Shown one piece after another: positions 6,283 to 58,865 of a stretch of DNA of 64,000 nt. The stretch's first letter is position 1; each line of letters starts with the position of its first letter. The position numbers were made by a program, and so were the translations under genes. The notes beneath the pieces are model-generated. The model saw only the letters and a program-made list of their open reading frames with translations, was not told where the DNA came from and did not search any database. The DNA comes from a virus. Where the stretch lies: the IMG/VR virus record IMGVR_UViG_3300032018_000001, positions 32,001 to 96,000 of that record. The stretch is one strand, 5' to 3'.

Positions 6283-6349
6283 GTTATAAGTCATTGATTT
6301 TTATACCTTTATAACTATAAAGAAAAAAGTATATAATCTTACTTTTAAC

Positions 6350-6378
6350 TTGCATTCCTGATTGTATTACATTATATT
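6350..6378 (+). promoter_or_regulatory. repeated early promoter TTGCAT-TCCTGATTG..-TATATT (copies at 7103, 8048, 8672, 52864)
   Basis: -35 TTGCAW, 17-nt spacer with conserved TCCTGATTG, -10 TAT(A/C)TT, AT-rich UP region. Confidence 0.8.
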
Positions 6379-6397
6379 TAATACTGGAGGGGGAGCT

Positions 6398-6850
6398 ATG
6401 AAAAAGATTTCGGTTCCCAGAAACATGAGAAGCAGCGAGCGGCTGCTGAGCTTTTTGCCTTGGTGCAAGGAGTGGGAGCTGAGCGGGTATCTTGGTAAGA
6501 GCGGAATTCTTTATGAGGTGGGCGGGAAGCGCGAGAGTCGCGCTTTCAACAAAGAGGTTGTGTTTCACTCTCACCCTAAGAGCAAAAACGCCAATGTTCC
6601 TTCTCCCGCGGATGTCATGAAGTTTGCTTACCTGAGCCGGGCCAAAGTTTCAATCGTGGTTTGCCCGGATTGCTTTGTGGTCATGGCCAAGGGGCCACGT
6701 TTCAATCCTGAAAAATACAACCCGGAGTTTGATGCTGTTTCCCTGATGTGGAATTCCGGTAAGATAGACGGCCGCTGGATTAAAAATTGGAAGCGGGCCG
6801 TGGTTGACCTGGGAATGAAAGTTGACCTTTATGGTCGGGAGAGTGCCTAA
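6398..6850 (+). CDS. JAB/MPN-like metalloprotein
   Basis: 'VFHSHP-x6-VPSPADV' (HxH-x7/8-S-xx-D type). Confidence 0.55.
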   Translation: MKKISVPRNMRSSERLLSFLPWCKEWELSGYLGKSGILYEVGGKRESRAFNKEVVFHSHPKSKNANVPSPADVMKFAYLSRAKVSIVVCPDCFVVMAKGPRFNPEKYNPEFDAVSLMWNSGKIDGRWIKNWKRAVVDLGMKVDLYGRESA

Positions 6851-7293
6851 TGAGTATCACATTTCAAGATTTCATGCGTTTGCAGGTCATGGGTATTGAA
6901 CTATACGCCCAACGCAATAAAAAACCTGCTTCTGTGGTGGCCGGGGAATGGATTCAAAAGTACGCGGTGAGTTTTAGAAATCTCTTTAAAAATTAAAAGG
7001 TAGAGCGTATGAAAAACAGGAAAAAGTGTAACGGCAGGTGCTCAAAGTGTCTCGGATGTGGCAGGGTGTGTTAATAAAAAGATAAATAATCTTACTTTTT
7101 ACTTGCATTCCTGATTGTAATTGATTATCTTATTACTGTGAGAGAGAAAGAACAAATGATGGACTTCTACAAACGGCAATGTGAATACTTCCTGCAGCAT
7201 GCAGCAGGCCTTCAGGATGTTGCCAGAGACTTTATGCTGCGGTGGGCAGAAGAGAGCGCCCTGAAGTATATGGAATTTAAACTTAACTAAGAG

Positions 7294-7605
7294 GTGAGTA
7301 TGATGCTCTTAACGAAAGAAATTCTGGCCAAGCTGCCTCCTATCAAGGGCCAGGAAGTAAAAGGTGAAGACGCAGTGGCTTTTGTCAAATTCTTTACCCC
7401 GGACTCAAACTGGACTTGGTACGCTACGGAATATGACCCGGCTGAGGGCCTGTTCTTCGGGCTGGTGCAGGGGTTTGAAGAGGAGCTGGGTTACTTCTCG
7501 CTGGCGGAGCTGAAAGTGGCGCGGCGCGGGCCTATGGGACTGGCCATTGAGCGCGACAAATGGTACAGTCCTAAACCAATCAAAGAATTAAGGAGGGCGG
7601 CATGA
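7294..7605 (+). CDS. DUF2958-family protein
   Basis: 'VKFFTPDSNWTWYATEYD...FFGLVQGFEEELGYFSLAEL...IERD'. Confidence 0.85.
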   Translation: MSMMLLTKEILAKLPPIKGQEVKGEDAVAFVKFFTPDSNWTWYATEYDPAEGLFFGLVQGFEEELGYFSLAELKVARRGPMGLAIERDKWYSPKPIKELRRAA

Positions 7606-8018
7606 GTGGTATGGTATTTCCTGCTGAATGGAAACTGAGTTTTGAAAAGCCTAATGTCTGGAGTCGAAAAAAGAAATATGTCCGTTTCAATGCTTGGCGC
7701 GGGCAAGAAGAGCCTGTTTACGCCGTAGCAGGGGCCAATGATACGGGCATGAGCAGCGATTCTCCGTGTCCCTCTGATGTATGCAAGGCTGAGCTTGGCA
7801 TGGTTAAGCAGGTGCTGAAGGAAAACAACATCCCAGCGCGTATGGCTACGGGCCAGTCATCCAATGTCTTTTGCTTGTGTCGCTACTTGATTGTTCCGGT
7901 TAATCTGGTGGAAGCTGCCCGTGGTATCCTTAGCTTCTGGTATCAAACTGAAGGAAGATGGAGTACGCGACTACTATACTTGTGCAGTTCTCCGGTTTCT
8001 CTGGTTAAGGCAGCATAA
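7602..8018 (+). CDS. hypothetical early protein
   Basis: ATGA overlap, AGGAGG RBS. Confidence 0.55.
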   Translation: MSGMVFPAEWKLSFEKPNVWSRKKKYVRFNAWRGQEEPVYAVAGANDTGMSSDSPCPSDVCKAELGMVKQVLKENNIPARMATGQSSNVFCLCRYLIVPVNLVEAARGILSFWYQTEGRWSTRLLYLCSSPVSLVKAA

Positions 8019-8732
8019 AGAAAAAGATAAATAATCTTACTTTTCACTTGCATTCCTGATTGTAATTGATTATATTAGTAATGTAGGGAAAGGAGTTAAG
8101 ATGAGCGAGAAAAAGAAACTGAGTCAGAGCTGGTGCCGGTGCAAAGAAGACAAGCTCGCGCTGGGAGAGTTCATTTACAAGGAAGACGGAAAGTGCGAGT
8201 GCGGAATTGAGATGCATCATTACCATTGCGAGTCCTGCGGCGGCGTTCTTCAAATCGGGTAAGGAGAGACTATGAGACTTCACAAAGAAAAAGTCATGAG
8301 TGTCAACGGCATACTGTGCAACGTCATCATGGATAAGGGGCCGGGCCGCGATAGCCTGGACATCATACCTTTTGTTTCACGGAAGATTTGGGAACTGGGC
8401 CTTGGCAATCTGGAGCCTATTTGGAAATCAGCCAGGGAGCTTATGGATGCGCCGTACTGCGCGGAACGAAAACTGGATAATGGAATAGTAATCTACAATT
8501 CATACTTATGTGCAAAGGAGGCTGCATAATGGCAAGTAACGCTGTGGCTGAAAAAGCTGAAAAGTTTGACCTTGTGTTCCTGGGAGCCTATGATTCTGGG
8601 ATTGTACCAGGGAGACGGAATCTGCATGGGTTGCGGTAGGAAAGTATAAAATAAGTATTTTCACTTTTTACTTGCAATCCTGATTGAATAGAATTATATT
8701 ACTGGTAAGCAATAAAACTTAAGGAGGGTAAG

Positions 8733-9746
8733 ATGTCAAATGCAAAGATGGTCAGTCTGAAAAGTACCCGCTTCGCGTCCCTGGAGCAGGCAGAAGAGTA
8801 TGTCAACCGGTTTTCTATTACGGATAAGGTTGTCGCGTGCCGGGACATGCAGTTCAAAAACGGCCTCATCCAAATCGGCAACCAGGAAATGCCTTTTACG
8901 GCGAATGGCTGGCGGGCGTTCCTCAGTGAAGTCGTGCCGGGTGCGAGTCGCTTCCTGAATTCGGAAGACTGCCCTCAGGATTTGGCGGAGCAGGTTGTGA
9001 ATCGCATGCTATCGGAAAAGTCCGACATGAAGCGCATGGTGCGAATCGAACAGGACAACGGCGCTCAGCCGTACCTCAAAGCATTCCTTTCGGAAGGATA
9101 CCGGCCGTACAATAACAAGCAGTTTGTGGCCGAAATAAAAAAGAACATCGCAGGCAAGGAAGACGAATTCAAGGTGCTGCGTCCCAGCGTGAGCGGCGGA
9201 ACATTCTCGGTGAACCTGCTGAATCACAAGCAGAAGATTACTCTGCAGGACGGTGAGAAAAACCGTAGCATCTTCCTGGGCGTGAATTACCGGAACGGCG
9301 AAGACGGAGGAGCCTCTGTGTCGCGCCTGCCTTTCAGCTTTGACCGCTTCTGCGAGAACGGTACTATCTTCGGCAGGAAATTCATTGAAGCTGTGGCGAA
9401 GCGTGTTGTCCACCGTGGCGCTGACATCGCGGACAGGGTGCTGGAAATTATCGGCAAGGCGGACAATTCCGCGCTGGACGTTCTCCGGAAATCGTATGTC
9501 AATTTGATGAATACCATGATGACTCAGCTTTATTTCAAGCATGTCGCGGAGCGGGCTATCTATCCCATGAAGGTCATGCCTCAGCGGGATTTCATTGAGG
9601 CAATCCCTTTTGACGGGAGCGAGAGTCGCTTTGGCTTCTTCAACCGGATTAACGAGTATGCTCATACGGGCAACCATGACGAAGAGAAACGCATGGAGTT
9701 TGAGCGGCTGGCCGGGATGGTTGTGGAGGAGAATCTGATTTCCTAA
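8733..9746 (+). CDS. DUF932-like protein
   Basis: 'AFLSEGYRPYNN', 'NGEDGGAS...DRFCENG' resemble the DUF932 R.xC.NG motif. Confidence 0.6.
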   Translation: MSNAKMVSLKSTRFASLEQAEEYVNRFSITDKVVACRDMQFKNGLIQIGNQEMPFTANGWRAFLSEVVPGASRFLNSEDCPQDLAEQVVNRMLSEKSDMKRMVRIEQDNGAQPYLKAFLSEGYRPYNNKQFVAEIKKNIAGKEDEFKVLRPSVSGGTFSVNLLNHKQKITLQDGEKNRSIFLGVNYRNGEDGGASVSRLPFSFDRFCENGTIFGRKFIEAVAKRVVHRGADIADRVLEIIGKADNSALDVLRKSYVNLMNTMMTQLYFKHVAERAIYPMKVMPQRDFIEAIPFDGSESRFGFFNRINEYAHTGNHDEEKRMEFERLAGMVVEENLIS

Positions 9747-9762
9747 TCCTAACTCCTGAAAC

Positions 9763-9790
9763 AAAGCCCCAGAGAAATCTGGGGCTTTTT
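9763..9790 (+). terminator. rho-independent terminator
   Basis: AAAGCCCCAGA/TCTGGGGCTTT followed by a T run. Confidence 0.85.
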
Positions 9791-9867
9791 CTTTTTGTCC
9801 GTATTAATATGACAGGAGCATTAGTCAGAAGCTAAGAGCGCCTGCTACAGAAGAAACAAGAAAGAAG

Positions 9868-10110
9868 ATGATTATCGCTTTAAAGAGAGTAATTCATACG
9901 CCAGCGTGGTGTGCTAAAATAAGTGCCGCATTAAAAGGTAAGAAGAAATCCCCAGAGCATGCAGCAAAGTGTAGAACATTTAATTTAGGAAAGCATCACA
10001 CGGAGGCCACAAAGAGACACTTATCAAGAGTTATGATGGGAAGATTCGTTAGTTCAGAAACGAAAGAAAAGCAGCGGTATGCTGCTCTTAAAAGAAAGCG
10101 TTGTGCTTAA
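9868..10110 (+). CDS. NUMOD3 repeat protein (homing endonuclease remnant)
   Basis: 'HTPAWCAKISAALKGKKKSPEH', 'GKHHTEATKRHLS', 'SSETKEKQR'; no nuclease domain. Confidence 0.65.
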   Translation: MIIALKRVIHTPAWCAKISAALKGKKKSPEHAAKCRTFNLGKHHTEATKRHLSRVMMGRFVSSETKEKQRYAALKRKRCA

Positions 10111-10132
10111 TAATATTTATGGGAGGATTACT

Positions 10133-11455
10133 GTGAAAAAATTGGCAATACTTACTGATTTCGTTGGTTACTTGGAATCCTACTCAATCGCGCAGATTGT
10201 TAGGCAGCAGATGCGGATGCTGAAGCAGAACGGTTACAAGTTCAGATTCATTCAGCGGACAACTGACATTGCAGAATGGGAAAAATATACCGATGATATT
10301 TGTGTCATTCCCGATTACATCTGCGGCAACCGCGGAGAAACAGAGGACATTCTTAAGCGCACTGGAAAAAGCTGGGCGGAGCTGGTAAAAGAAACCTATG
10401 ATGCCCTGGAGCTTCACCTGAAGGATATGGACATTGTGATTACGCATGACCTTATTTATCAGTCCTGCGATAATATTCAGGATGAGGCGGCAGCGCTTTA
10501 TGCAAAAAATCATCCTAATGTTTTATGGTTGCATTGGGTACACTCTGCTTCTAACCCGGCCGGGCTTAACAAGCAGGTAGGAAAAAACGTGTATGCAAAT
10601 TCTTTTGTCATATACCCTAACCAACGTGATATTTTCAAGGTTGTTGCTAATCTTAAAGTTCCGCCTGAGAAGGTCAAGGTTGTTCCGCATGCTATGGATT
10701 ACGTTGACTTCTTCGACATGCATCCTATCACGGAAAAAATAATAGAGTCCACCGGAATCATGGAAGCAGATGTAGTATGCTGCTATCCGCTGCGCCTGGA
10801 CAGAGGAAAGCAACCCGAATTCTGCATCAAGATTATGAATCAGATACGTGACCATTTCAAACGCAAGATTCAGTTGGTCTTTGTTGACTTCCAATCCACA
10901 GGCGGCGATAAGGTAAACTACCGGGAAGAGCTTATAGCAATGGCTGCTTCCTATGGCTGGCAGGATGATGAGCTCATTTTCATGTCCCAGTTTCATCCGG
11001 ACTGTTTCATGCAGACTCCCAAAAAAGTTATTCGGGATTTGTTCCTGTTGTCAAATGTTTACATTCACCCCAGCAAAAGCGAAACGTACTCATTGACAAC
11101 GCAGGAAGCGCGGGCCTGCAAAAACATGCTAGTGTTGAATTTCGATTTCCCGGCAATGAGGGCTATGTACGGGGAAGACCCTATTTACCGTAAGTTCAGC
11201 TCCAATACTTGCATTGTGGAGGATAACCCTAACCCGAATACAGCAACACAGACCGGTTACGTTCGGGGTGTTGATAATTACTGCATGGAGATAGCCGGGA
11301 GAATTTTATATTATCTTGATAAGCAGGCTGTGGTTAAGATGTCTGATGAAACAAGAAAAAATAAAAACCTGCAAACGGTTTTTAAGCGTCATATAGAACC
11401 TTTACTTTTTGGTGCCAAAGATGATAATCAGCAAGCCCCCCAGCAAGGCGTATGA
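10133..11455 (+). CDS. GT-B fold glycosyltransferase (GT4-like)
   Basis: 'RLDRGKQPE', 'NVYIHPSKSETYSLTTQEA'; GTG start after GGAGG. Confidence 0.8.
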   Translation: MKKLAILTDFVGYLESYSIAQIVRQQMRMLKQNGYKFRFIQRTTDIAEWEKYTDDICVIPDYICGNRGETEDILKRTGKSWAELVKETYDALELHLKDMDIVITHDLIYQSCDNIQDEAAALYAKNHPNVLWLHWVHSASNPAGLNKQVGKNVYANSFVIYPNQRDIFKVVANLKVPPEKVKVVPHAMDYVDFFDMHPITEKIIESTGIMEADVVCCYPLRLDRGKQPEFCIKIMNQIRDHFKRKIQLVFVDFQSTGGDKVNYREELIAMAASYGWQDDELIFMSQFHPDCFMQTPKKVIRDLFLLSNVYIHPSKSETYSLTTQEARACKNMLVLNFDFPAMRAMYGEDPIYRKFSSNTCIVEDNPNPNTATQTGYVRGVDNYCMEIAGRILYYLDKQAVVKMSDETRKNKNLQTVFKRHIEPLLFGAKDDNQQAPQQGV

Positions 11456-11709
11456 TGAATTCTGTGCGCGAGCTTTTGGTAAACCTGTGGAGCAAACAAA
11501 GCCAGAAGAAAAACCGGCTGCTCCTGAAGAGGAAAACCGTGACCTTCTCAGCGCTCGCATGCGTATTGCACGGGGTGAGCTCAGGCCCCCAGGACGATAA
11601 TGAGTTCAGGAATTGACTTTGGGTTTTTTATAGATAGGATGTCGGTAGCCGCGGAAGAGGCAAAAGTTCTTAGTGAACAATCACAAGGATTACTACTGAC
11701 TGCGCTTTG

Positions 11710-12181
11710 TTGTAAGCAATAACATTTTGCCGCAAGGCAAAGAAACGCATGTTTCACATTCGGAGGAAAAGATGAAAGCAAAAAGTCAGAAGAAATCGCC
11801 CCTATCTTGCAAGCTCCGTGGCGATAAAGTTGTAATCGAAATTGGAATTGATACGCTTGCCTTTGCTTTTGAAGAAAGCGAATACAATAATCCTTTTGAT
11901 GTTACCCAAAACAAACACGTTCGCACAGACACCATCGCTTTCAAAAAAGAGTTTGCCAGGGATGTCGTAAACGAAATCAACGATGAAGAGGAAGACGGCT
12001 CAACTTTGCTTACTGGGCTATTTGACAAGGCAACAGAAAGAGCCGTTGAAAACGGAAGTCTTGGAATCAGAGAAATTTAAGAGCGCAAAATGTTAAAGCA
12101 CACAACAATCGTATGGGGTTTCGTAGCCAAGGCTACTCAAGGCAAATTGCCTGCTGGCAACAACTTCCCCATACTTTCCCG
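11710..12181 (+). mobile_element. solo integron-type gene cassette (gene 11772-12080 plus attC-like site 12100-12187) inserted into a small phage ORF
   Basis: left G|TTGTAA; right R'' ACACAAC, arms GTATGGGG/CCCCATAC, CAAAT..ACTT motif, G|TT; removal rejoins ORF 11600-12230. Confidence 0.7.
11772..12080 (+). CDS. hypothetical cassette protein
   Basis: GGAGG RBS; 'EEEDGSTLLTGLFDKA'. Confidence 0.65.
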   Translation: MKAKSQKKSPLSCKLRGDKVVIEIGIDTLAFAFEESEYNNPFDVTQNKHVRTDTIAFKKEFARDVVNEINDEEEDGSTLLTGLFDKATERAVENGSLGIREI

Positions 12182-12544
12182 TTCTATGGAGCGAACAGAG
12201 GCTGTCAGGGAAAAATACTGTCTTCATTAAAGGAGTGTGTATGGCAAGCATGGCGGATATTCAGTCTGATTGTCACGGTGCTTCTGTGATGTCCATAGCA
12301 GGTAAGAGCTCCTGTTACTACAGGTGCATTAATTGCGGAAAAGAATGTACGGTACGGGCAGCAGCTCCTCAGGTAAAGACTCCCGCAGATGCTGTGATTG
12401 ATGAATTCTGTTTGAAGATTGAAAAGGAAATGGAATCTCCTGCCCAGGAGCTGCGGGAAGCAGAGAGGCTTAAGTTTGTGACGGACAGCCTAGAAGAGGG
12501 AAAGTTTATCGAGCGAAAACCTTTTGTAGCAGTGGAGGCTTAGC

Positions 12545-13027
12545 ATGCAAAAAGAAGAAGTCCTTTCATTTCCTGCTTACGGAAAAAATGTAGACCTTCA
12601 CGCTTACTACTACTATTCCAGAAAAAGTGCTGCACAAAAAGCCGAGGTTTGCAATGGTGCCGGGCCGCGCCGTTTCGGTTGGCTGATACCGGATACCTTC
12701 TGCGGCCTTTGCATTACAGAGCCCGCCAATATCCATGATTGGAATTACCAGTTCGGAGAGACCATTGAGGATTTCCATGAAGCAAACAGAAATTTCAAAT
12801 GGAATATGCTACGCATGGCAGAGGCTCTGCGAGAAAAAGAAGCAGCAGCTAATCCTGGATGGCTACGGCGCAAGTGGAATGAATACATGCATACCCGGCG
12901 CTGTGAAATCATTGAGGATGAATATTACAAAGCCGTGGAAGCTTTCGGAGGGGCTATCTTCTTCAAGAAAGACCCTATCAGTTTTACGTGGCAATCTCTT
13001 GCTCCCGTGGGAGGTGCTATTGTATAA
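12545..13027 (+). CDS. DUF1353-like phage protein
   Basis: 'CNGAGP...IPDT..GL.I.EPANIHDW.Y...AVEAFGG'. Confidence 0.55.
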   Translation: MQKEEVLSFPAYGKNVDLHAYYYYSRKSAAQKAEVCNGAGPRRFGWLIPDTFCGLCITEPANIHDWNYQFGETIEDFHEANRNFKWNMLRMAEALREKEAAANPGWLRRKWNEYMHTRRCEIIEDEYYKAVEAFGGAIFFKKDPISFTWQSLAPVGGAIV

Positions 13028-13130
13028 CGCCTACTGTATTGCCATTATTATAGTCTCCGCTGCTGTAGCAATCATTTCCCTTAGGGAAAAGCGCGAAGAC
13101 TTTTAACCGATAAATTTACACTATACAACT

Positions 13131-13162
13131 AAGACCCCATCCTCTAAGAGGGTGGGGTTTTT
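13131..13162 (+). terminator. rho-independent terminator
   Basis: ACCCCATCCTCT/AGAGGGTGGGGT followed by a T run. Confidence 0.8.
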
Positions 13163-13234
13163 GGCGTTATATCTAATTTTTATATTATCTATGCAAGAAG
13201 ATACTACACAACAAACCGCTGCACTTGAGGCGAT

Positions 13235-13639
13235 ATGTCTGAAACTGACAACAAATTCATTGACCGGCTTATTGATTTGGTTAAGGAAGTCACAGAATCA
13301 AATGTAGCGCAAACACAAAGTATTGAGGCACTTGAGACAAAAGTTACGGAAGACATAAGTAATGCAGAAGGAAATATCCTTGAGGCTACAGGCTCACTGT
13401 CTGATAGGATAACCGCGCTGGAAGAAAAGAATACCTGCTTTTATGGCTCAGAAGAATTCAAACCTGTTAGAGAAAACATCAAAAAACTTTTTACTGAAGA
13501 AGCGTATGACATACTTACGCTGGTGAAGAATGTAAAAAAGTTTGTTAGCTTCGTGTCAATACTATTTATCATTCTATCGGCTATTCTGGTGGTAGCAGGT
13601 GCATTTTCCTTATTGCGCGTTCTTTTTAAAGGAGCATAG
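13235..13639 (+). CDS. coiled-coil protein with C-terminal TM helix (holin/XhlA-like)
   Basis: hydrophobic C-terminus 'FVSFVSILFIILSAILVVAGAF'. Confidence 0.45.
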   Translation: MSETDNKFIDRLIDLVKEVTESNVAQTQSIEALETKVTEDISNAEGNILEATGSLSDRITALEEKNTCFYGSEEFKPVRENIKKLFTEEAYDILTLVKNVKKFVSFVSILFIILSAILVVAGAFSLLRVLFKGA

Positions 13640-13837
13640 TATGTCACCTACAGAAAAGAAGTTCAGTGAGAGTGTTGCACACGGCATTCAGGCCATAAAA
13701 AATAATACAGAGCGCATGCAGCGGATGCGTGTGACTCTGGAGGACAGAAGGGCCAGCCTCTTTTCTTCCAATGTTGAAAAATTCAGCAGGATAACACAGC
13801 GCACATTCATGGAAGCAAAAACCTGTCTGGATAAACT

Positions 13838-14197
13838 ATGAGTTTTGTAAAGATAGAAGACAGTTGCGCTATTCTTAGATTTTCCAATACCAGCACACCT
13901 GAGCACCGTGATGTTCTCATGGATGTAAGTGCTCTAATGCAGTTTGGTTTTAAGTGTTTCATTTTCGACTTTTCAGGAGTCAAAAATTTTAGTTCCAGTG
14001 TTTTAGGTTTTGCTCTTGGCTTGATTCGCGTTGTAAAAGGAAACGGCTGTAAGATGTATGTCAGAAATCTCAGCGAAGAGGCCCGGACAATGCTTCAATT
14101 CTCTGTCAAGGTAGAATGCTGCAATGATGAATTGCACGAGCTGCTATCCTTGGAAAATATTCAGAGCATTGAATTAGGAGGAAGCGATGGCCATTGA
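13838..14197 (+). CDS. STAS-domain (anti-anti-sigma-like) protein
   Basis: 'FIFDFSGVKNFSSSVLGFALGLIR....GCKMYVRNLSEE' is the STAS D.S.V...SS.LG motif. Confidence 0.7.
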   Translation: MSFVKIEDSCAILRFSNTSTPEHRDVLMDVSALMQFGFKCFIFDFSGVKNFSSSVLGFALGLIRVVKGNGCKMYVRNLSEEARTMLQFSVKVECCNDELHELLSLENIQSIELGGSDGH

Positions 14198-17100
14198 TAC
14201 TGCCAGAGTATTAAGTGTATTGCAGGCACTGCTTGCAGATAACATGCAGAAGAAAATAAAGGCCCAGCAGGTCAGAGATTTTCTTGTTTCTGTTTACGGT
14301 CGCTGGGCATCAAAAACTATCATCTCTGCTGATAGTCCATATTCCATCACCAAAGATGATGTGGCGCTTTACATTGATGCTACTGTGGATAATACCACAG
14401 CTCTGCTACCGAATGATTTTGTTCAAAATGACAACGACATAATTATTTACATCGAGAGAACTGACCTCAGCATTAAAAATGTCACTGTTGCTTGTCAAGC
14501 GGGATATACCATAGCGCAAAACGGTACAAGCATTAAGTTAGATAGACAGGGTGCTCATGTTCTCCTGCACAAACTGGGAACGGTTTACCATATTGTCGTT
14601 GATGGCCGGGTAGGTTTTTCTGTAACAAATCCCGTTCAGAATGACGTGCTTGCTTACGATAGCATTAGCAAGCAGTTTATCAATGTTCCTAATCCTGGCG
14701 GCGGGACGCAGGGACAACAGGGTGTTACCGGAATTCAAGGCCAGACCGGTGTGCAGGGAAAAACAGGCCCACAAGGTCAGCAGGGGCATACCGGCCTGGG
14801 CGCTCCTGGTATTCAAGGTCAGACCGGCATGCAAGGTACTACAGGTGCCCGTGGAATCCAAGGTAATACAGGCCTGCAGGGCTTAACCGGAGTGGTCGGC
14901 GTTCAAGGACAGACCGGCCTCCAAGGCATGACAGGAGCAGAAGGCGAAGATGGTGTCACCGGCGTTCAGGGCGTAACAGGCCCTGTAGGTCAGACCGGAG
15001 TGCAAGGAAATACTGGAGTCCAAGGTATGCAAGGACATACCGGCATGCAAGGACTTGGCATACAAGGTCAGACCGGCTTACAAGGGCATACTGGCATTCA
15101 GGGTATCAAAGGTAATACGGGCGCACAAGGCGTTCGTGGCGATACAGGTGTCCAGGGTAAGCAGGGTACTACTGGCATAGGTGTTCAAGGCAATACGGGT
15201 GTTCAAGGCCGCACAGGCGTTCAAGGAAATACCGGAATAGGTATTCAAGGTGAGACAGGCGTACAAGGTCAAACTGGGCCTTTTGGCGGGCCTCCTGGTG
15301 AGACTGGTGTGCAAGGTACGACAGGCGTGGCCGGTGCTCGCGGTATAACCGGAATACAAGGCCTTCAAGGAACAGAAGGTGCTACAGGCCCTCAAGGAAA
15401 TCGCGGTGTGACCGGCGTTCAAGGCCAGACCGGTGTGCAAGGTGTACAGGGACAAACTGGTATTCAGGGTCATACTGGTGCACAGGGTAGAACAGGAGTC
15501 CAAGGCGATACCGGTGTGGCAGGAGAAACCGGCATACAGGGTATTGAAGGGCACGAAGGGGTGCAAGGAAATACCGGTGTGCAGGGAATTCAAGGCAACA
15601 CTGGAGTTCAAGGCAACACAGGAGTCCAAGGCGATACCGGCGCTCAAGGGGGCACAGGTTTACGTGGTAATACCGGCGTACAAGGTAATACTGGCATCCA
15701 GGGTGCTACCGGCGTACAAGGTAATACTGGCATCCAAGGAGTTCAAGGCCAAACCGGTGTACAAGGTAGCATTGGTGTGCAGGGTAGTACTGGTGTGCAG
15801 GGATTTCAAGGAAACACAGGTTTACAGGGTAATACTGGTGTTCAAGGAATCCAAGGTAATACTGGCCAAGGTTTACAAGGTAATACTGGCGTGCAAGGTT
15901 TACAGGGTAATACTGGCGTGCAAGGAATCCAAGGTAATACTGGCGTGCAAGGTTTACAGGGTAATACGGGCGTGCAAGGCAACACCGGAGTTCAAGGAAA
16001 CACTGGTGTCCAGGGTGCTACCGGAGTTCAAGGTCAAACTGGTGTCCAGGGTCAGACTGGTTTACGCGGTAATACAGGTGTTCAAGGAAATACTGGTTTA
16101 CAGGGAATCCAAGGCAACACCGGCGTACAAGGTACTCAGGGTAATACTGGCATCCAAGGTAATACCGGCGTAGCAGGAAGTACGGGCGTACAGGGCGTTC
16201 AGGGTGTTACAGGCCTTCAGGGTTTTGGTGGCGGCGCTACATTATTTTTTGATGACGCAGCCTCTGACATCGGTGGCTATTTTTCATTATTGACAGACCC
16301 TAACACAATAGCCGAAGTTCAAGATGATATTTTTGTTAATTCAGGAACTGGAGAGGTTTTTGGAGAATCGTACGCAACAGCTGCAGGTTTTCCTGGACGC
16401 ACGGTTATTCCTGGAGGTGACTGGGAGTTTGACATTTGGCGTTTTGTTAGCAGTGCTACTGGAGTTACAATACTTAACATTAATGTTTACAAGAGGGCTA
16501 CAGGCGGGGCTGAAACACTTCTTTTTGTTGCTACTACCGGTAAAATAAATGACACTACTAACACAATGCAGAACATTACAGTTACGCAACCTGATTTTGT
16601 TGTTTTAGCTACTGACAGAATAGTAATAAAAATATCTGCTACTTCTACTTCTGGTGCTACAAGAACAGCAAGCCTTACTCATAACGGTACTTTACATTAT
16701 TCACATGTGCATACAACTCTTGCTGTTGTGGGCTCGCAGGGTATTACGGGTATTCAAGGTCAAACTGGTGTCCAGGGTCAGACTGGTTTACGCGGTAATA
16801 CAGGTGTTCAAGGTATACAAGGCAACACGGGCGCAGGCATACAAGGCAGCACTGGCGTGCAAGGTATCCAGGGCCAAACTGGCATGCAAGGAAACACTGG
16901 AGTTCAAGGTAATACCGGAGTACAAGGCAGCACAGGTTTACAAGGTAATACCGGCACTCAAGGAATTCAAGGTAACACTGGTGTGCAAGGAATTCAAGGT
17001 AACACTGGTGTGCAAGGTATCCAAGGTAACACAGGTTTACAGGGCAATACTGGTGTGCAAGGTATCCAAGGCAATACTGGTGTGCAAGGAATTCAAGGTA

Positions 17101-42366: not shown

Positions 42367-42712
42367 TGCACTTTATTCATGCACACTGGATTATCGCGTT
42401 TATCTGGCTTATCATCGGAATATTCATGGCCGGGTTTGAAATTCAGAAGTCAGAAATTCATGATAAAAATAAAAAGCAAAAAGGCGAGCCTACCAAAGAG
42501 TACACTGCGGGTGTTCGACTTTTGGCTTCAATGATTATTGCTTGTGCGGGCCCCATAACTTTGATTGCTAACTTTGGTGGCTGGTGTTACAGGAGATACA
42601 ACCGCGGCGGAAATAAAAGAAGAATGCTTTGCTGAAAGACGTTCATACAATAAAGTTCGTAAAGAAGAAAAAGAGTGGTTTGACAAATACGAAACAATAT
42701 AATGTGGGATTT

Positions 42713-42789
42713 GGCCAACAGGGGCGGCACGAATCCCGTGCCACCGCAAATTTGCGAGTACGCAAACTTCGGCAAGCAATTTGTTGTCT
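42713..42789 (+). repeat. attC-like site (left arm degenerate)
   Basis: CAAAT-TTGCG..CGCAA-ACTTCGG motif, then GTTGTCT AAAAT. Confidence 0.55.
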
Positions 42790-42841
42790 AAAATAAACCG
42801 GCCAAGACAAGGCCGCCGCCGAAAGGCAGAAAGCGAGAAAA

Positions 42842-43096
42842 ATGGAAGACTGGAAAGAAGCTATCGTGATTATTATCGCCCTGCTTGTTGTTGGCACCTC
42901 TGCCATCAAAGGGTGCCAAACTGTTTATGAAACTGACGCGAAGGTATCTATTACCGCGATGGAAAAGGGCTACACTCATGCAACGGTTAATGGGTCGTCA
43001 ATGATTGTGTGGGTAAAAAAGACGGCGGCGGAAGAGGCCGGTTTACTTCAGACAACAAACGCAAGCCCGGCTCACTCAACCGCAAATGCTAAATAA
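42842..43096 (+). CDS. cassette-encoded small membrane protein
   Basis: N-terminal hydrophobic helix; reads into the attC site. Confidence 0.6.
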   Translation: MEDWKEAIVIIIALLVVGTSAIKGCQTVYETDAKVSITAMEKGYTHATVNGSSMIVWVKKTAAEEAGLLQTTNASPAHSTANAK

Positions 43097-43160
43097 TGGA
43101 TAGGCGGTTTCGTTCGCCCAAATGCGCTATGCGCACTTCGGGCTTGCGCATCCGTTGGGC
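43050..43160 (+). repeat. attC-like site
   Basis: R'' AGACAAC; arms CGCAAGCCCG/CGGGCTTGCG; CAAAT-GCGC TAT GCGC-ACTT; R' GTTGGGC. Confidence 0.8.
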
Positions 43161-43319
43161 AAAATAAAACTACGCGCAAGGCAAAGAAGCGCGGCTTTCA
43201 GCCTCGGAGGAAATAAAATGGAACAAGAAAAATGCAAAAACACAATCTGTAAATACAATAACGATGGACACTTGATTGGAACTATGTTGCGAAAGAAAAA
43301 GAGCGCGTAGTTTTAAATC

Positions 43320-43377
43320 GCCCAACAACCGGCTTGGCGGCTCCGGTGGACAAGCCACCTACGACCCAACGTTGTGC
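43320..43377 (+). repeat. short/degenerate attC-like site
   Basis: R'' GCCCAAC; GGCTTG/CAAGCC arms; R' GTTGTGC. Confidence 0.65.
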
Positions 43378-43425
43378 GCAAAATTGGCCGAAAGACATTA
43401 AAGGCATCGCGCCGGAAAGACAAAA

Positions 43426-43728
43426 ATGATAAAAACAAAGTTGGTGCAAAAGATAGGTGAATTTAATCTTGAGAAAAGAGTGGTAGTGAATCCCCCGTAC
43501 ACGGTTTACGGGCACAGCACATTATTGCCGTCATTTTCTATGTCTATGAAGGTTGGTGGGCTTCGGAAAATGTTGGTCGGGTTAGCTGACGAAGATTCTT
43601 TCGGAATAACTGTATCCGATAAAATGACAGAATACACCATTGTAAAGAAATTAAAGACCGGCGCGAAATCATCGGCCAATTCAGCGCACAACAAACCCCA
43701 TGCCGGTTCATTCGGCGGGAGAGAATAG
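43426..43728 (+). CDS. cassette-encoded hypothetical protein
   Basis: ORF between attC-like sites. Confidence 0.55.
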   Translation: MIKTKLVQKIGEFNLEKRVVVNPPYTVYGHSTLLPSFSMSMKVGGLRKMLVGLADEDSFGITVSDKMTEYTIVKKLKTGAKSSANSAHNKPHAGSFGGRE

Positions 43729-43799
43729 ATAATGGAAAACCCGCCTCATTCACCCAAATGCGCCAGGAGCGCACTTCGGCATGGGGCGGTCCGTTGTGT
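43686..43799 (+). repeat. attC-like site
   Basis: R'' GCACAAC; arms CCCCATGCCG/CGGCATGGGG; CAAAT-GCGC..GCGC-ACTT; R' GTTGTGT. Confidence 0.8.
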
Positions 43800-43858
43800 T
43801 CAATTAAACCGTGCCAATACCAAAGGCACAACGCGGCCAAGGCCGCTGAAAGGATAAG

Positions 43859-44101
43859 ATGGAGCAAAAATCTTTTTGGATGATTGAAAAGCCTATCAAC
43901 GGTGTCGCTCATTGGTGGGTACGCAGAGAAGGGCAAAACGAATACTGGGATAACCCAGACCGATGGACAACTGATCCCAGTAAGGCACGGCATTACCTTT
44001 CCGTAGAAGAAGCTCTGCACGTTATGGGCCATGACATGATTGGTTGCATTGCAACTGAACATCTCTGGATGGACAAAGAAACAAAGGCAGGCACGGTTTA
44101 A
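43859..44101 (+). CDS. cassette-encoded hypothetical protein
   Basis: 'WMIE...WTTDPSKA......EA...ATEH.W'. Confidence 0.6.
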   Translation: MEQKSFWMIEKPINGVAHWWVRREGQNEYWDNPDRWTTDPSKARHYLSVEEALHVMGHDMIGCIATEHLWMDKETKAGTV

Positions 44102-44137
44102 CTAAACGCCGGTTACACCGGCTGAAAGGCGGAGCAG

Positions 44138-44410
44138 ATGAAAAATTATGAGATGTTTGAGCCAAAATTCAAGATGCATGACATCCTGAAAGATACCACA
44201 AACGGAATGAAAGGTAAGTGTCTCGGTGTCACATTTTATTCTACGGGATGTATTCATTATGGGCTTGCCCCTCTCAAGGCAAAGCCGGACGGAACGCAAC
44301 CGGACTGGTTCTGGCTTGATGAAACACGGGTTGGCTTGGTTCAGTCGGCAAAAATTCAGAAGTTGGAAAAACCACATTCCGGGCCGGATATGAATCCGAG
44401 AATGCAATAA
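44138..44410 (+). CDS. cassette-encoded hypothetical protein
   Basis: 'KD..NG.KG...G..FY.TGC.HYGL.P.....W.DE'. Confidence 0.6.
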   Translation: MKNYEMFEPKFKMHDILKDTTNGMKGKCLGVTFYSTGCIHYGLAPLKAKPDGTQPDWFWLDETRVGLVQSAKIQKLEKPHSGPDMNPRMQ

Positions 44411-44432
44411 AGGCAGCGCAACTTTTAACTAA

Positions 44433-44530
44433 ACACAACAAACTAAAGGGCGGATCACATGCTCGCATGTTCGACCTACATGGTTTTAAAAATTGATTAT
44501 GGGAAAAACCACGTCGCCCTTAGGTTATGG
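44433..44530 (+). repeat. attC-like site (array right end)
   Basis: R'' ACACAAC; arms CTAAAGGGCG/CGCCCTTAG; G|TTATGG. Confidence 0.65.
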
Positions 44531-52314: not shown

Positions 52315-53766
52315 AGGACGTAACGGATGAATAAGCCCATGCGTAAGCTGGCCAAGAGGGTTGCTAAGGATTTGCGAAAGCAGATTGACAAAGAGTGCAA
52401 GGAAAAAGGAAAGCCTTTCGGTACGCTTTCTGACAAATATAAGGTTGTGGCGTTCCTGGGCTACAGGCCCAGAAACGATTTTCTTATTGCTGGTCTGGGG
52501 GGAATTTAATGGCTAAGGTCATTGAGCGGTTATCTCCTAACGGCCAAGCTTACATGCGTGACAACGTGATGACCGGCTACGACTCTGATTTTGGCCGGTC
52601 AACTGTTTTTGTGGTATGCCCTTTTGTGCAGCAGGCTGATGCTTTGGGTTTCGGCCCTGTCAAAAGCTTAAGCCTGTTGCTTCTGCTCGCCAATTCCTGC
52701 ACTGGTCTGCACATCAATATTCGGGCTGTGAGGACGGGGATTTGACTACCCGTTCCCGTGAAGTCTGAACCTCAGCTGCAGGGAGAGGCCCTGCTACTCC
52801 AAGGGTAGCAGGGTTTTTTGTCTTAGTAGGGTAAATTTAAAGATAAATACTTTCATTATTTGCTTGCATTCCTGATTGTAATTGCTTATATTAGTAGTGT
52901 AGGGAAATGAGTATCACTGAGAAATCAAAAAAGCTCTTCATTGATTACGTGAAGGATGCTGGGAACTGGTCTGGATGCCCTGTAGTGGGCGGGAACGTGG
53001 GAGGAAGCAAGGAAGACCGCGGGAACCTTACTCACCTGAAGAAGCTCGGACTCGTAGTAGGCGTTGATGATGAGGAGACTCCTTACATCGTTTTTACCAA
53101 AAAAGGTTTTGATTATGCTTGCAAGCTTGGCCTTGCGGAATACCTGGAAGAGAGTGATTGTACGGCTCAGTCTGAAATAAAGGAGAACTCATGAAGCCCC
53201 TATCAGAATTGGAAAAGCTCGTTCTCTCGGAAGAAAACAGGAAGCAGCAGGCGCGGAACCTGTACGTGAACATTTCACGGGAAGACCTTCGCAGGATGGT
53301 ACGCGCTTATCGCAGGAAGGAGAAAGCATGAGCCTTGAACTTGATATGGCGCTGACGCGAATAGACCTGGACAAAGAGAACGCGGACAGGAAAGAGCGGG
53401 CGCGTTACCAGGAACGGTTGCTAAGCATGATTAAGGCCCAGATACCCCACCGGTACGAAGACTGGAAAAAGGAAATCCTTTCAGGTACTATCCAAGACCC
53501 GCGCCTGAAAGTCTGGATAGGAAATGAGCGGTACAAGTCCGGGCGCGGAACGCTCTGGTCAAATTACGTTCAAAGCATCATCGACACATTTCCTGATACG
53601 ATAAAATAGGAGGTACTATGAGTCCTGAAGAAAAGGTAAAAAAGTTGAGCGGAGATTTGGTCAAGGCTCTTGCAGAGTTGCCAGCGTATCCTTACGATGT
53701 TGTTTCTGGGTTAGTAGCCTCTGCCCGGCAGCTGAAAGACAAAATCAATAAACACCTGGAGGGTAA

Positions 53767-58781: not shown

Positions 58782-58816
58782 CAGAGGCCGGCAGTAGTAT
58801 GAGGTGAGTAAAAAAC

Positions 58817-58851
58817 AAAGGGAGCAGGGTTGCATACCTGCTCCCTTTTTT
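58817..58851 (+). terminator. rho-independent terminator
   Basis: AAAGGGAGCAGG/CCTGCTCCCTTT followed by a T run. Confidence 0.85.
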
Positions 58852-58865
58852 GTTAAATTACAAGC

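Follow-up and report, generated by a model that had tools for sequence, protein, structure and literature searches.

In experiments, the integrases IntI1, IntI2 and IntI3 put gene cassettes at 5′-GWT-3′ sites in genomes (bioRxiv 10.1101/2022.09.11.507474; Nat Microbiol 2024;9:228). Loot et al. (bioRxiv 10.1101/2022.09.11.507474; Nat Microbiol 2024;9:228-240) described how cassettes enter genomes at GWT sites and introduced the term SALIN (single attC lacking integrase); laboratory demonstration of insertion at non-att genome sites is only recent. The sites used, termed attG, are recombined as duplex DNA and have only the GWT in common (Loot et al., bioRxiv 10.1101/2022.09.11.507474). A natural example related in the same preprint is the aadB cassette in RSF1010/pRAY, a complete single cassette at a non-att site downstream of a resident promoter. 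Clusters of attC sites have also been reported from phages, including virulent ones, in a survey in which two attC sites were the minimum and empty sites were not presented, and which therefore leaves the entry route open; illegitimate recombination was suggested as that route (Qi et al., 2023; PMC9892861). Integrons, and the sharing of attC sites across domains, have been described in Archaea (Ghaly et al., bioRxiv 10.1101/2022.02.06.479319).

The locus described here lies in the genome of a phage. The window, i.e., the whole stretch of 64,000 nt that was analyzed, covers bases 32001-96000 of a virus record from a sediment metagenome; the record is complete, is 141,806 bp long, and has direct terminal repeats. 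Its long open reading frames (ORFs) are all on the + strand, and its gene content (including a portal protein, a head protease, the major head protein, an NAD-dependent ligase, a topoisomerase, glycosyltransferases, a collagen-like fiber protein, and an Amidase_2 lysin) indicates that the host of the phage is a bacterium. Within the window, an integron-type gene cassette interrupts a small phage gene (Table 1), and it is very probable that an integron integrase acting in trans put this one cassette at a secondary, attG-type site, making it a SALIN in a phage. As in the insertions of Loot et al., a single ORF with its attC is found outside an integron, with no integrase nearby, at a non-att G↓TT (GWT) site (the arrow marks the crossover point), and the orientation of the cassette allows reading by a resident promoter. 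Unlike in those insertions, the recipient is a phage rather than a bacterial chromosome, the case is a natural one with an empty allele, the attC family and integrase are not those of classes 1-3, and the CRGM motif is not matched. The CALINs of phages (PMC9892861) likewise hold integron-type attCs and cassettes without an integron integrase, and their cargo includes genes useful to phages; here, in contrast, there is one cassette, for which both borders and the empty allele are defined. The aadB case, as the preprint relates it, is similar in being a natural, complete single cassette at a non-att site downstream of a resident promoter, and differs in its plasmid replicon, antibiotic resistance cargo, and class 1 type attC. 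The attC family occurs in arrays of many archaeal, DPANN, CPR, and anaerobic bacterial genome bins, which recalls the cross-domain cassettes of Ghaly et al. (bioRxiv 10.1101/2022.02.06.479319); such arrays are cellular, and none of the 130 loci from genome bins considered here contained cargo of the phage cassettes. Precedents thus exist for bacteria (attG sites, SALINs) as well as for phages (attC clusters), and what is new is the before-and-after evidence in a phage.

Table 1. Coordinates of the cassette, its junctions, its attC, and neighboring features (window positions unless a contig is named).
Feature	Position	Strand	Description	Support
Upstream phage ORF	11421..11600	+	59 aa; stop overlaps start of split gene (TAATG)	Same layout in L005 (genes 456-629, 629-787)
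Split gene, 5′ part	11600..11709	+	Codons 1-36 and TG of codon 37	ORF compared with L005
Left junction G↓TT	11709..11711	+	G is phage, TT onward is cassette	First blastn block with L005 ends at 11714
Integron-type gene cassette	11710..12181	+	472 bp, absent from relatives	L005, P0009 contig; nucleotide homology to L001
Cassette leader	11710..11771	+	62 nt; begins with 3′ part of the cassette's own R′ (TTGTAAGCAAT)	Motif search; extended R′ 10.5 bits
Leader hairpins	11745-11771, 43190-43217, 43840-43858; L001:7645-7676, 8470-8495			
Cargo ORF	11772..12080	+	102 aa, acidic, behind GGAGGAAAAG	Phage-associated family; homologs P0002-P0008
attC	12100..12187	+	88 nt, two inner hairpins, CAAAT...ACTTC motifs, hybrid R′	Fold; models R1, R2
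R″	12100-12106	+	ACACAAC, then 3-nt spacer	
L″	12110-12118	+	CGTATGGGG	
L′	12167-12174	+	CCCCATAC, then 6-nt spacer	
Hybrid R′	12181-12187	+	GTTCTAT	
Right junction G↓TT	12181..12183	+	G is cassette, TT onward is phage	Second blastn block with L005 starts at 12181
Split gene, 3′ part	12182..12230	+	T of codon 37, then SMERTEAVREKYCLH and stop; still intact	92% nucleotide identity to L005
Next phage gene	12241..12543	+	100 aa, CxxC motifs, behind AGGAG	Same neighbor in relatives
Cassette array without integrase	42713..44530	+	attC-bounded; four cassettes after a lone attC	30.5 kb downstream; same attC family

A first-pass annotation, made from the letters alone, had proposed a solo cassette in a phage gene at G↓TT, consisting of one gene and an attC-like site at 11710-12181, and the cassette is indeed made up in this way (a conserved leader, a 102-aa ORF, and an attC), with both borders and an empty allele in agreement. 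The left junction reads ...GCGCTTTG↓TTGTAAGC at 11709↓11710 and the right junction ...TTTCCCG↓TTCTATGG at 12181↓12182. The rejoined target, TTTG↓TTCTATGG, lies inside a coding frame, and joining 11709 to 12182 restores a 52-aa ORF exactly as the annotation had written it, with its start in the TAATG overlap and its stop right before the AGGAG of the following gene. In the present state, the 5′ part of this gene runs into the insert and stops after CKQ at 11722, at a length of 40 aa.

A search with the rejoined protein, which the annotation had recommended, returned exactly two relatives among 5.8 billion clustered proteins, both of them 52 aa long and matching over the full length (92 and 87% identity), and both homologs (P0009 and P0010) read LLLTALC↓SMERTEA (LLLTALCSMERTEA) straight across the junction. 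P0010 is encoded on L005, a JGI contig of 1,033 bp that has the same neighbors and 78% nucleotide identity to the window; L005 lacks the 472 bp and is the empty allele. Its positions 6-743 align by blastn with window positions 10968-11714 and its positions 738-799 with 12181-12243, and the two blocks overlap on GTT(CTA), i.e., the related phage has the predicted breakpoints. By this comparison, both borders of the cassette fall on the G↓TT crossover of R′. The contig that encodes P0009 (7.7 kb) matches the window at 8.7-14.5 kb in gene order, without an extra gene at the place of the insert, and the next gene on that contig begins 10 nt after the 52-aa gene. The empty allele is read as DNA in one relative only (L005), which is 22% diverged. 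The exact empty-allele pattern and the glycosyltransferase neighbor had no match in viral_contigs, the right-flank pattern had none in metagenome_contigs or viral_contigs, and blastn of window positions 8700-14200 against the phage collection found no relative.

The split gene and its counterpart in L005 differ in 25 codons, 18 synonymously and 7 non-synonymously, which shows the split gene to be a real gene under purifying selection. Since the nearer (92%) and the further (87%) homologs are both uninterrupted, the insert is the derived state, and because the detached tail of 15 codons is still intact, the event was probably recent. The probable source run (X1) has also been assembled independently, by Logan; there, the left junction is contained within one 6.2-kb contig (10800-12161, depth 66.3) and the right junction within one 3.8-kb contig (12132-13000, depth 59.7); with each junction inside a single contig of an independent assembly, the insert is not an assembly artifact.

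The attC of the solo cassette has R″ and R′ cores, an L″/L′ stem, an imperfect hairpin, and a length in the range of 55-140 nt, with modest model scores. When the bottom strand is folded at minimum energy, the 8-bp L stem forms and is the closing helix of the structure (z = -2.55). Two models were used: R1 was built from eight attCs of the array, L001, and L003, with the solo site left out, and R2 is a covariance model from 54 attCs of unrelated bacterial and archaeal genome bins, none of them from this phage group. Model searches with default filters missed the solo attC, which is seen only with filters off. In that setting, no other site of the window outside the training set scores as high with R1 (19.1 bits, E 0.008; ends and strand exact), and R2 across the window finds four sites, namely three in the array at 42.7-44.5 kb and the solo site (20.6 bits, E 0.023), again with exact ends and strand. 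The next match of R2 after these attCs is a terminator hairpin behind the major head gene (58810-58858, 18.5 bits), and single weak attC matches therefore need support from junctions. The only match in Rfam was a chance one, to a CRISPR repeat (E 0.64). As the first-pass annotation had remarked, the left core GTTGTAA agrees with R″ at 5 of 7 positions only; there is one further G-T pair, while the cassettes of the array and of L001 pair at 7/7. Imperfect R boxes are known in accepted attCs. Given the modest scores and the 5/7 pairing of the R boxes, the call of a cassette rests on the sum of the evidence.

The phage target site (GCGCTTTGTTCTATGGAGCG, 20 bp) has 5′-GWT-3′ at the cleavage point and is otherwise unlike attI or attC, as expected of an attG. 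On an extended R′ matrix of the attC family, which at 12 nt is too weak for finding cassette starts genome-wide, the target has a score of -3.5 bits, which puts it at rank 635 among 1803 GTT sites, or about the level of an average GTT site. With only the GTT of the GWT core shared, the earlier description of the target as a non-att site holds. The left end of the insert scores 10.5 bits on the same matrix, similar to the cassette starts of the array (11.4-12.5 bits). The right-hand CRGM motif (+6 to +9) is not matched, as the target has TGGA; because CRGM was defined for the hotspots of one integrase (IntI1, in E. coli), this miss carries little weight.

The cassette consists of one promoterless ORF followed by the attC, both on the + strand. 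A conserved segment of its leader (11732-11769) includes a hairpin (ATGT/ACAT) as well as GGAGG, the ribosome-binding site. The window has two copies of the motif of this segment and no more, at 11732-11769 and 43176-43213, and none is expected by chance (100 shuffles), which upholds the previously proposed homology to a leader at about 43176-43217. The cassettes of this phage group have a long leader in common, in which a hairpin stands immediately before the ribosome-binding site, and the stem of this hairpin varies by paired substitutions (ATGT/ACAT, GGCT/AGCC, GCGGCC/GGCCGC, GCGGGT/ACCCGC, and GCAGG/CCTGC); the hairpin is absent from the leaders of genome-bin arrays. No sigma-70-like promoter was found within the leader (11710-11771), the nearest + strand match being upstream, in the phage gene (11613-11640), and there is no + strand terminator between 9788 and 12994, a layout from which the cassette is predicted to be co-transcribed with the phage operon. 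The cargo matches two PHROG families, phrog_21508 (5e-9) and phrog_8560, both of unknown function, and has no match in Pfam, PADLOC, or the protein atlas; its AlphaFold model is poor (pLDDT 57.5). More distant homologs of the cargo occur in ordinary phage operons, and alignment of the cassette proteins against genome_contigs found no relative.

The solo site stands apart from other attCs, as in a SALIN: the nearest attC of the family, at 42713, is 30.5 kb away (given earlier as 31 kb), the usual clustering distance of attCs being 4 kb, and no integrase was found in the whole record. In the array that begins there, the cassette starts TTGTCT, TTGGGC, TTGTGC, and TTGTGT are each 7/7 complementary to their own R″. 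The lone attC that opens the array (42713-42789) has no ORF directly before it; it is located only 77 nt (window 42636-42713) past the stop of a 90-aa membrane-protein gene ending in ...RMLC.

Homologs of the cargo are also found in cassettes elsewhere. One, with 68% amino acid identity, is located between attC sites in a true cassette array of contig L001, where the cassette starts with G↓TTAGGC and pairs at 7/7 with its own R″ (GCCTAAC), and the next cassette starts with G↓TTGTAAGCAATAA. At the nucleotide level, L001 and the window are homologous over 11718-12108 only, a span that begins 8 nt into the cassette and ends shortly after R″. Contig L003, from a distant relative of the phage, has the cargo gene among many attCs; it also has DnaB and other genes in common with the phage at 40-50% amino acid identity. 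The attC clusters of the same family on these phage-like contigs (L003:2900-8300 and L001:7600-9486) contain some degenerate or truncated sites, and one truncated attC of L003 is cut by a methyltransferase gene at L003:4716.

In run X3, from another sediment study, the leader (11716-11761) of one contig follows on the end of a different attC, ACTTCAGCC...G↓TTGGGT (ACTTCAGCCTTGGGCGGGCG↓TTGGGT), and a second contig is identical to 11969-12109 and diverges after R″. The presence of the cassette in the L001 array and in these X3 contexts demonstrates its mobility; matches in runs X2 and X3 cover only small parts of the window and have no bearing on the habitat or allele there. In the probable source run, a 352-nt X1 contig (depth 6.5) matches 12132-12183 and then, at G↓TT, continues into a different cassette start, GTAAGCAATTAAACCGTGCC (TTGTAAGCAATTAAACCGTGCC), which does not occur in the assembled phage. 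The sum of the two lower depths is close to the third (66.3 ∼ 59.7 + 6.5). About one in ten of these phages may already have a second cassette here, in a possible two-cassette form in which the attC is followed by TTGTAAGCAATTAAACC....

The family motif (CAAATTTGC...GCAAACTTC...GTT) matched at least 120 genome-bin contigs, and in 80 of the motif-matching contigs R1 recognized 88 sites, often several per contig. The L stem of the family shows rich covariation. The layout of these attCs is R″-A-L″-hairpin-CCCAAA-hairpin TTTGC..GCAA-ACTTC-L′-5/6 nt-GTTAYRYGMAAT, and the type is common to the phage and to genome bins of very distant lineages (L007-L086), with examples from genome_contigs including L064:2423-6287, L039, L026, and L018. 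Archaeal bins with this attC type include Methanosarcinales, ANME groups, Archaeoglobus, Aenigmarchaeota, and Woesearchaeota, and bacterial ones include Patescibacteria, WOR-3, Chitinivibrionales, and Desulfofervidaceae. A tyrosine recombinase (778-1515, - strand) on L064, a Woesearchaeota contig, is divergent from five to six attCs (+ strand), and a Chitinivibrionales bin (G008) with the same attC family has an integron integrase that scores above the curated cut-off (345.6 bits). The complete 141.8-kb phage record, by comparison, has no match to PF00589, TIGR02249, PF01797, or PF00239, and searches of it for tyrosine, serine, and HUH (Y1) recombinases returned nothing even at E ≤ 1 for three families. 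With no match to TIGR02249 or PF00589, the record shows no complete integron, i.e., intI and attI beside the cassettes. Since the phage has no detectable recombinase, the enzyme was presumably that of the host.

The shape of the junctions points to an integron integrase as the agent, and the location of same-family attCs beside recombinases in genome bins, together with the lack of one in the phage, suggests that the infected cell supplied it. In the mechanism that we propose, an integron integrase from the infected cell, and not from the phage, would act on replicating phage DNA, where the folded attC of one circular cassette would recombine with the double-stranded 5′-G↓TT-3′ in the 52-aa gene. 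The product would read phage...G, then the cassette (TTGTAAGCAAT leader, 102-aa ORF, and attC...G), then TTCTATGG...phage. The interrupted gene would thereby be shortened to 40 aa, and the inserted cassette, in the same orientation as the phage operon and with its own ribosome-binding site, would be read with the surrounding genes; the cargo may be both expressed and useful.

It is very unlikely that the cassette entered without any integrase, by an illegitimate or microhomology exchange (GTT, GTTnTA) with the DNA of a cassette-bearing phage or of the host during co-infection. Such routes were suggested for phage attC clusters by Qi et al. (2023; PMC9892861), homologous cassettes are present on the related phage contigs L001 and L003, and the junctions have GTT and 5/6 bases in common (GTTGTA/GTTCTA). 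Both borders, however, coincide exactly with the position at which an integrase cuts, one with the G of the attC R′ and the other with base 1 of a start typical of the family, and random microhomology would have to reach both by chance and deliver exactly one cassette unit. We attach an equally small probability to a recombinase of another kind, perhaps encoded by the phage and of no recognized family, that moves these cassettes, the likeness to integrons being confined to the sites. This would fit the lack of an integron integrase in the phage, the occurrence of such cassettes on several phage contigs, the phage-like cargo families, and the long conserved leader that is not seen in genome-bin arrays. 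Against it, the attC family is found in the arrays of many bins, one of which is divergent from a tyrosine recombinase and one of which is in a bin with a true IntI, and the tyrosine, serine, and HUH (Y1) recombinase searches of the phage came back empty.

Still less probable is a filled ancestral state, with precise loss of the cassette in the relatives. Such loss is feasible in principle, as integrases are able to cut cassettes back out of a genome at the point where they went in (bioRxiv 10.1101/2022.09.11.507474), but the rejoined frame is conserved and under purifying selection in two relatives, which is expected only if the gene predates the insert, and relatives both nearer and further are empty. 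Least probable of all is a chimera of phage and host-integron reads. The Logan graph does branch inside the attC (12132-12161), and a third contig of low depth has the attC end; each junction is nonetheless within a single independent contig, and the cassette is covered as deeply as the phage flanks (66 and 60).

Insertion of a single cassette by a trans-acting integron integrase thus remains the preferred reading, and the locus provides direct comparative evidence that such an enzyme loads single cassettes into a phage genome in nature, the integrase step being deduced from the junctions. It also suggests how cassette arrays of phages start, and it supplies a defined attC/target pair for a recombination assay. 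A wider proposal, which we consider possible but doubtful, is that large phages of anoxic sediment routinely use host integron integrases for gene exchange: the first cassette could enter at any G↓TT, its attC could then act as the landing pad for arrays (such as those at 42.7 kb and on L001 and L003), and the circulating cassettes would be phage-type genes behind a shared, structured leader. As the range of this attC family takes in Archaea, DPANN, CPR, and many bacterial phyla, phages of this kind could be among the vehicles of cassettes between distant lineages.

Two further features of the window may be recorded. A 46-codon ORF (12090-12230) has its ATG in the conserved 3′ tail of the cassette (GCGCAAAATG) and, staying in frame across the attC, ends with the last 15 codons of the split gene, a putative fusion that may be due to chance. 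In addition, an 81-nt promoter-like repeat (TTGCATTCCTGATTGTAATTGATTATATTA) is present in five copies, at window positions 6318-8720 and 52832-52912, ahead of + strand genes.
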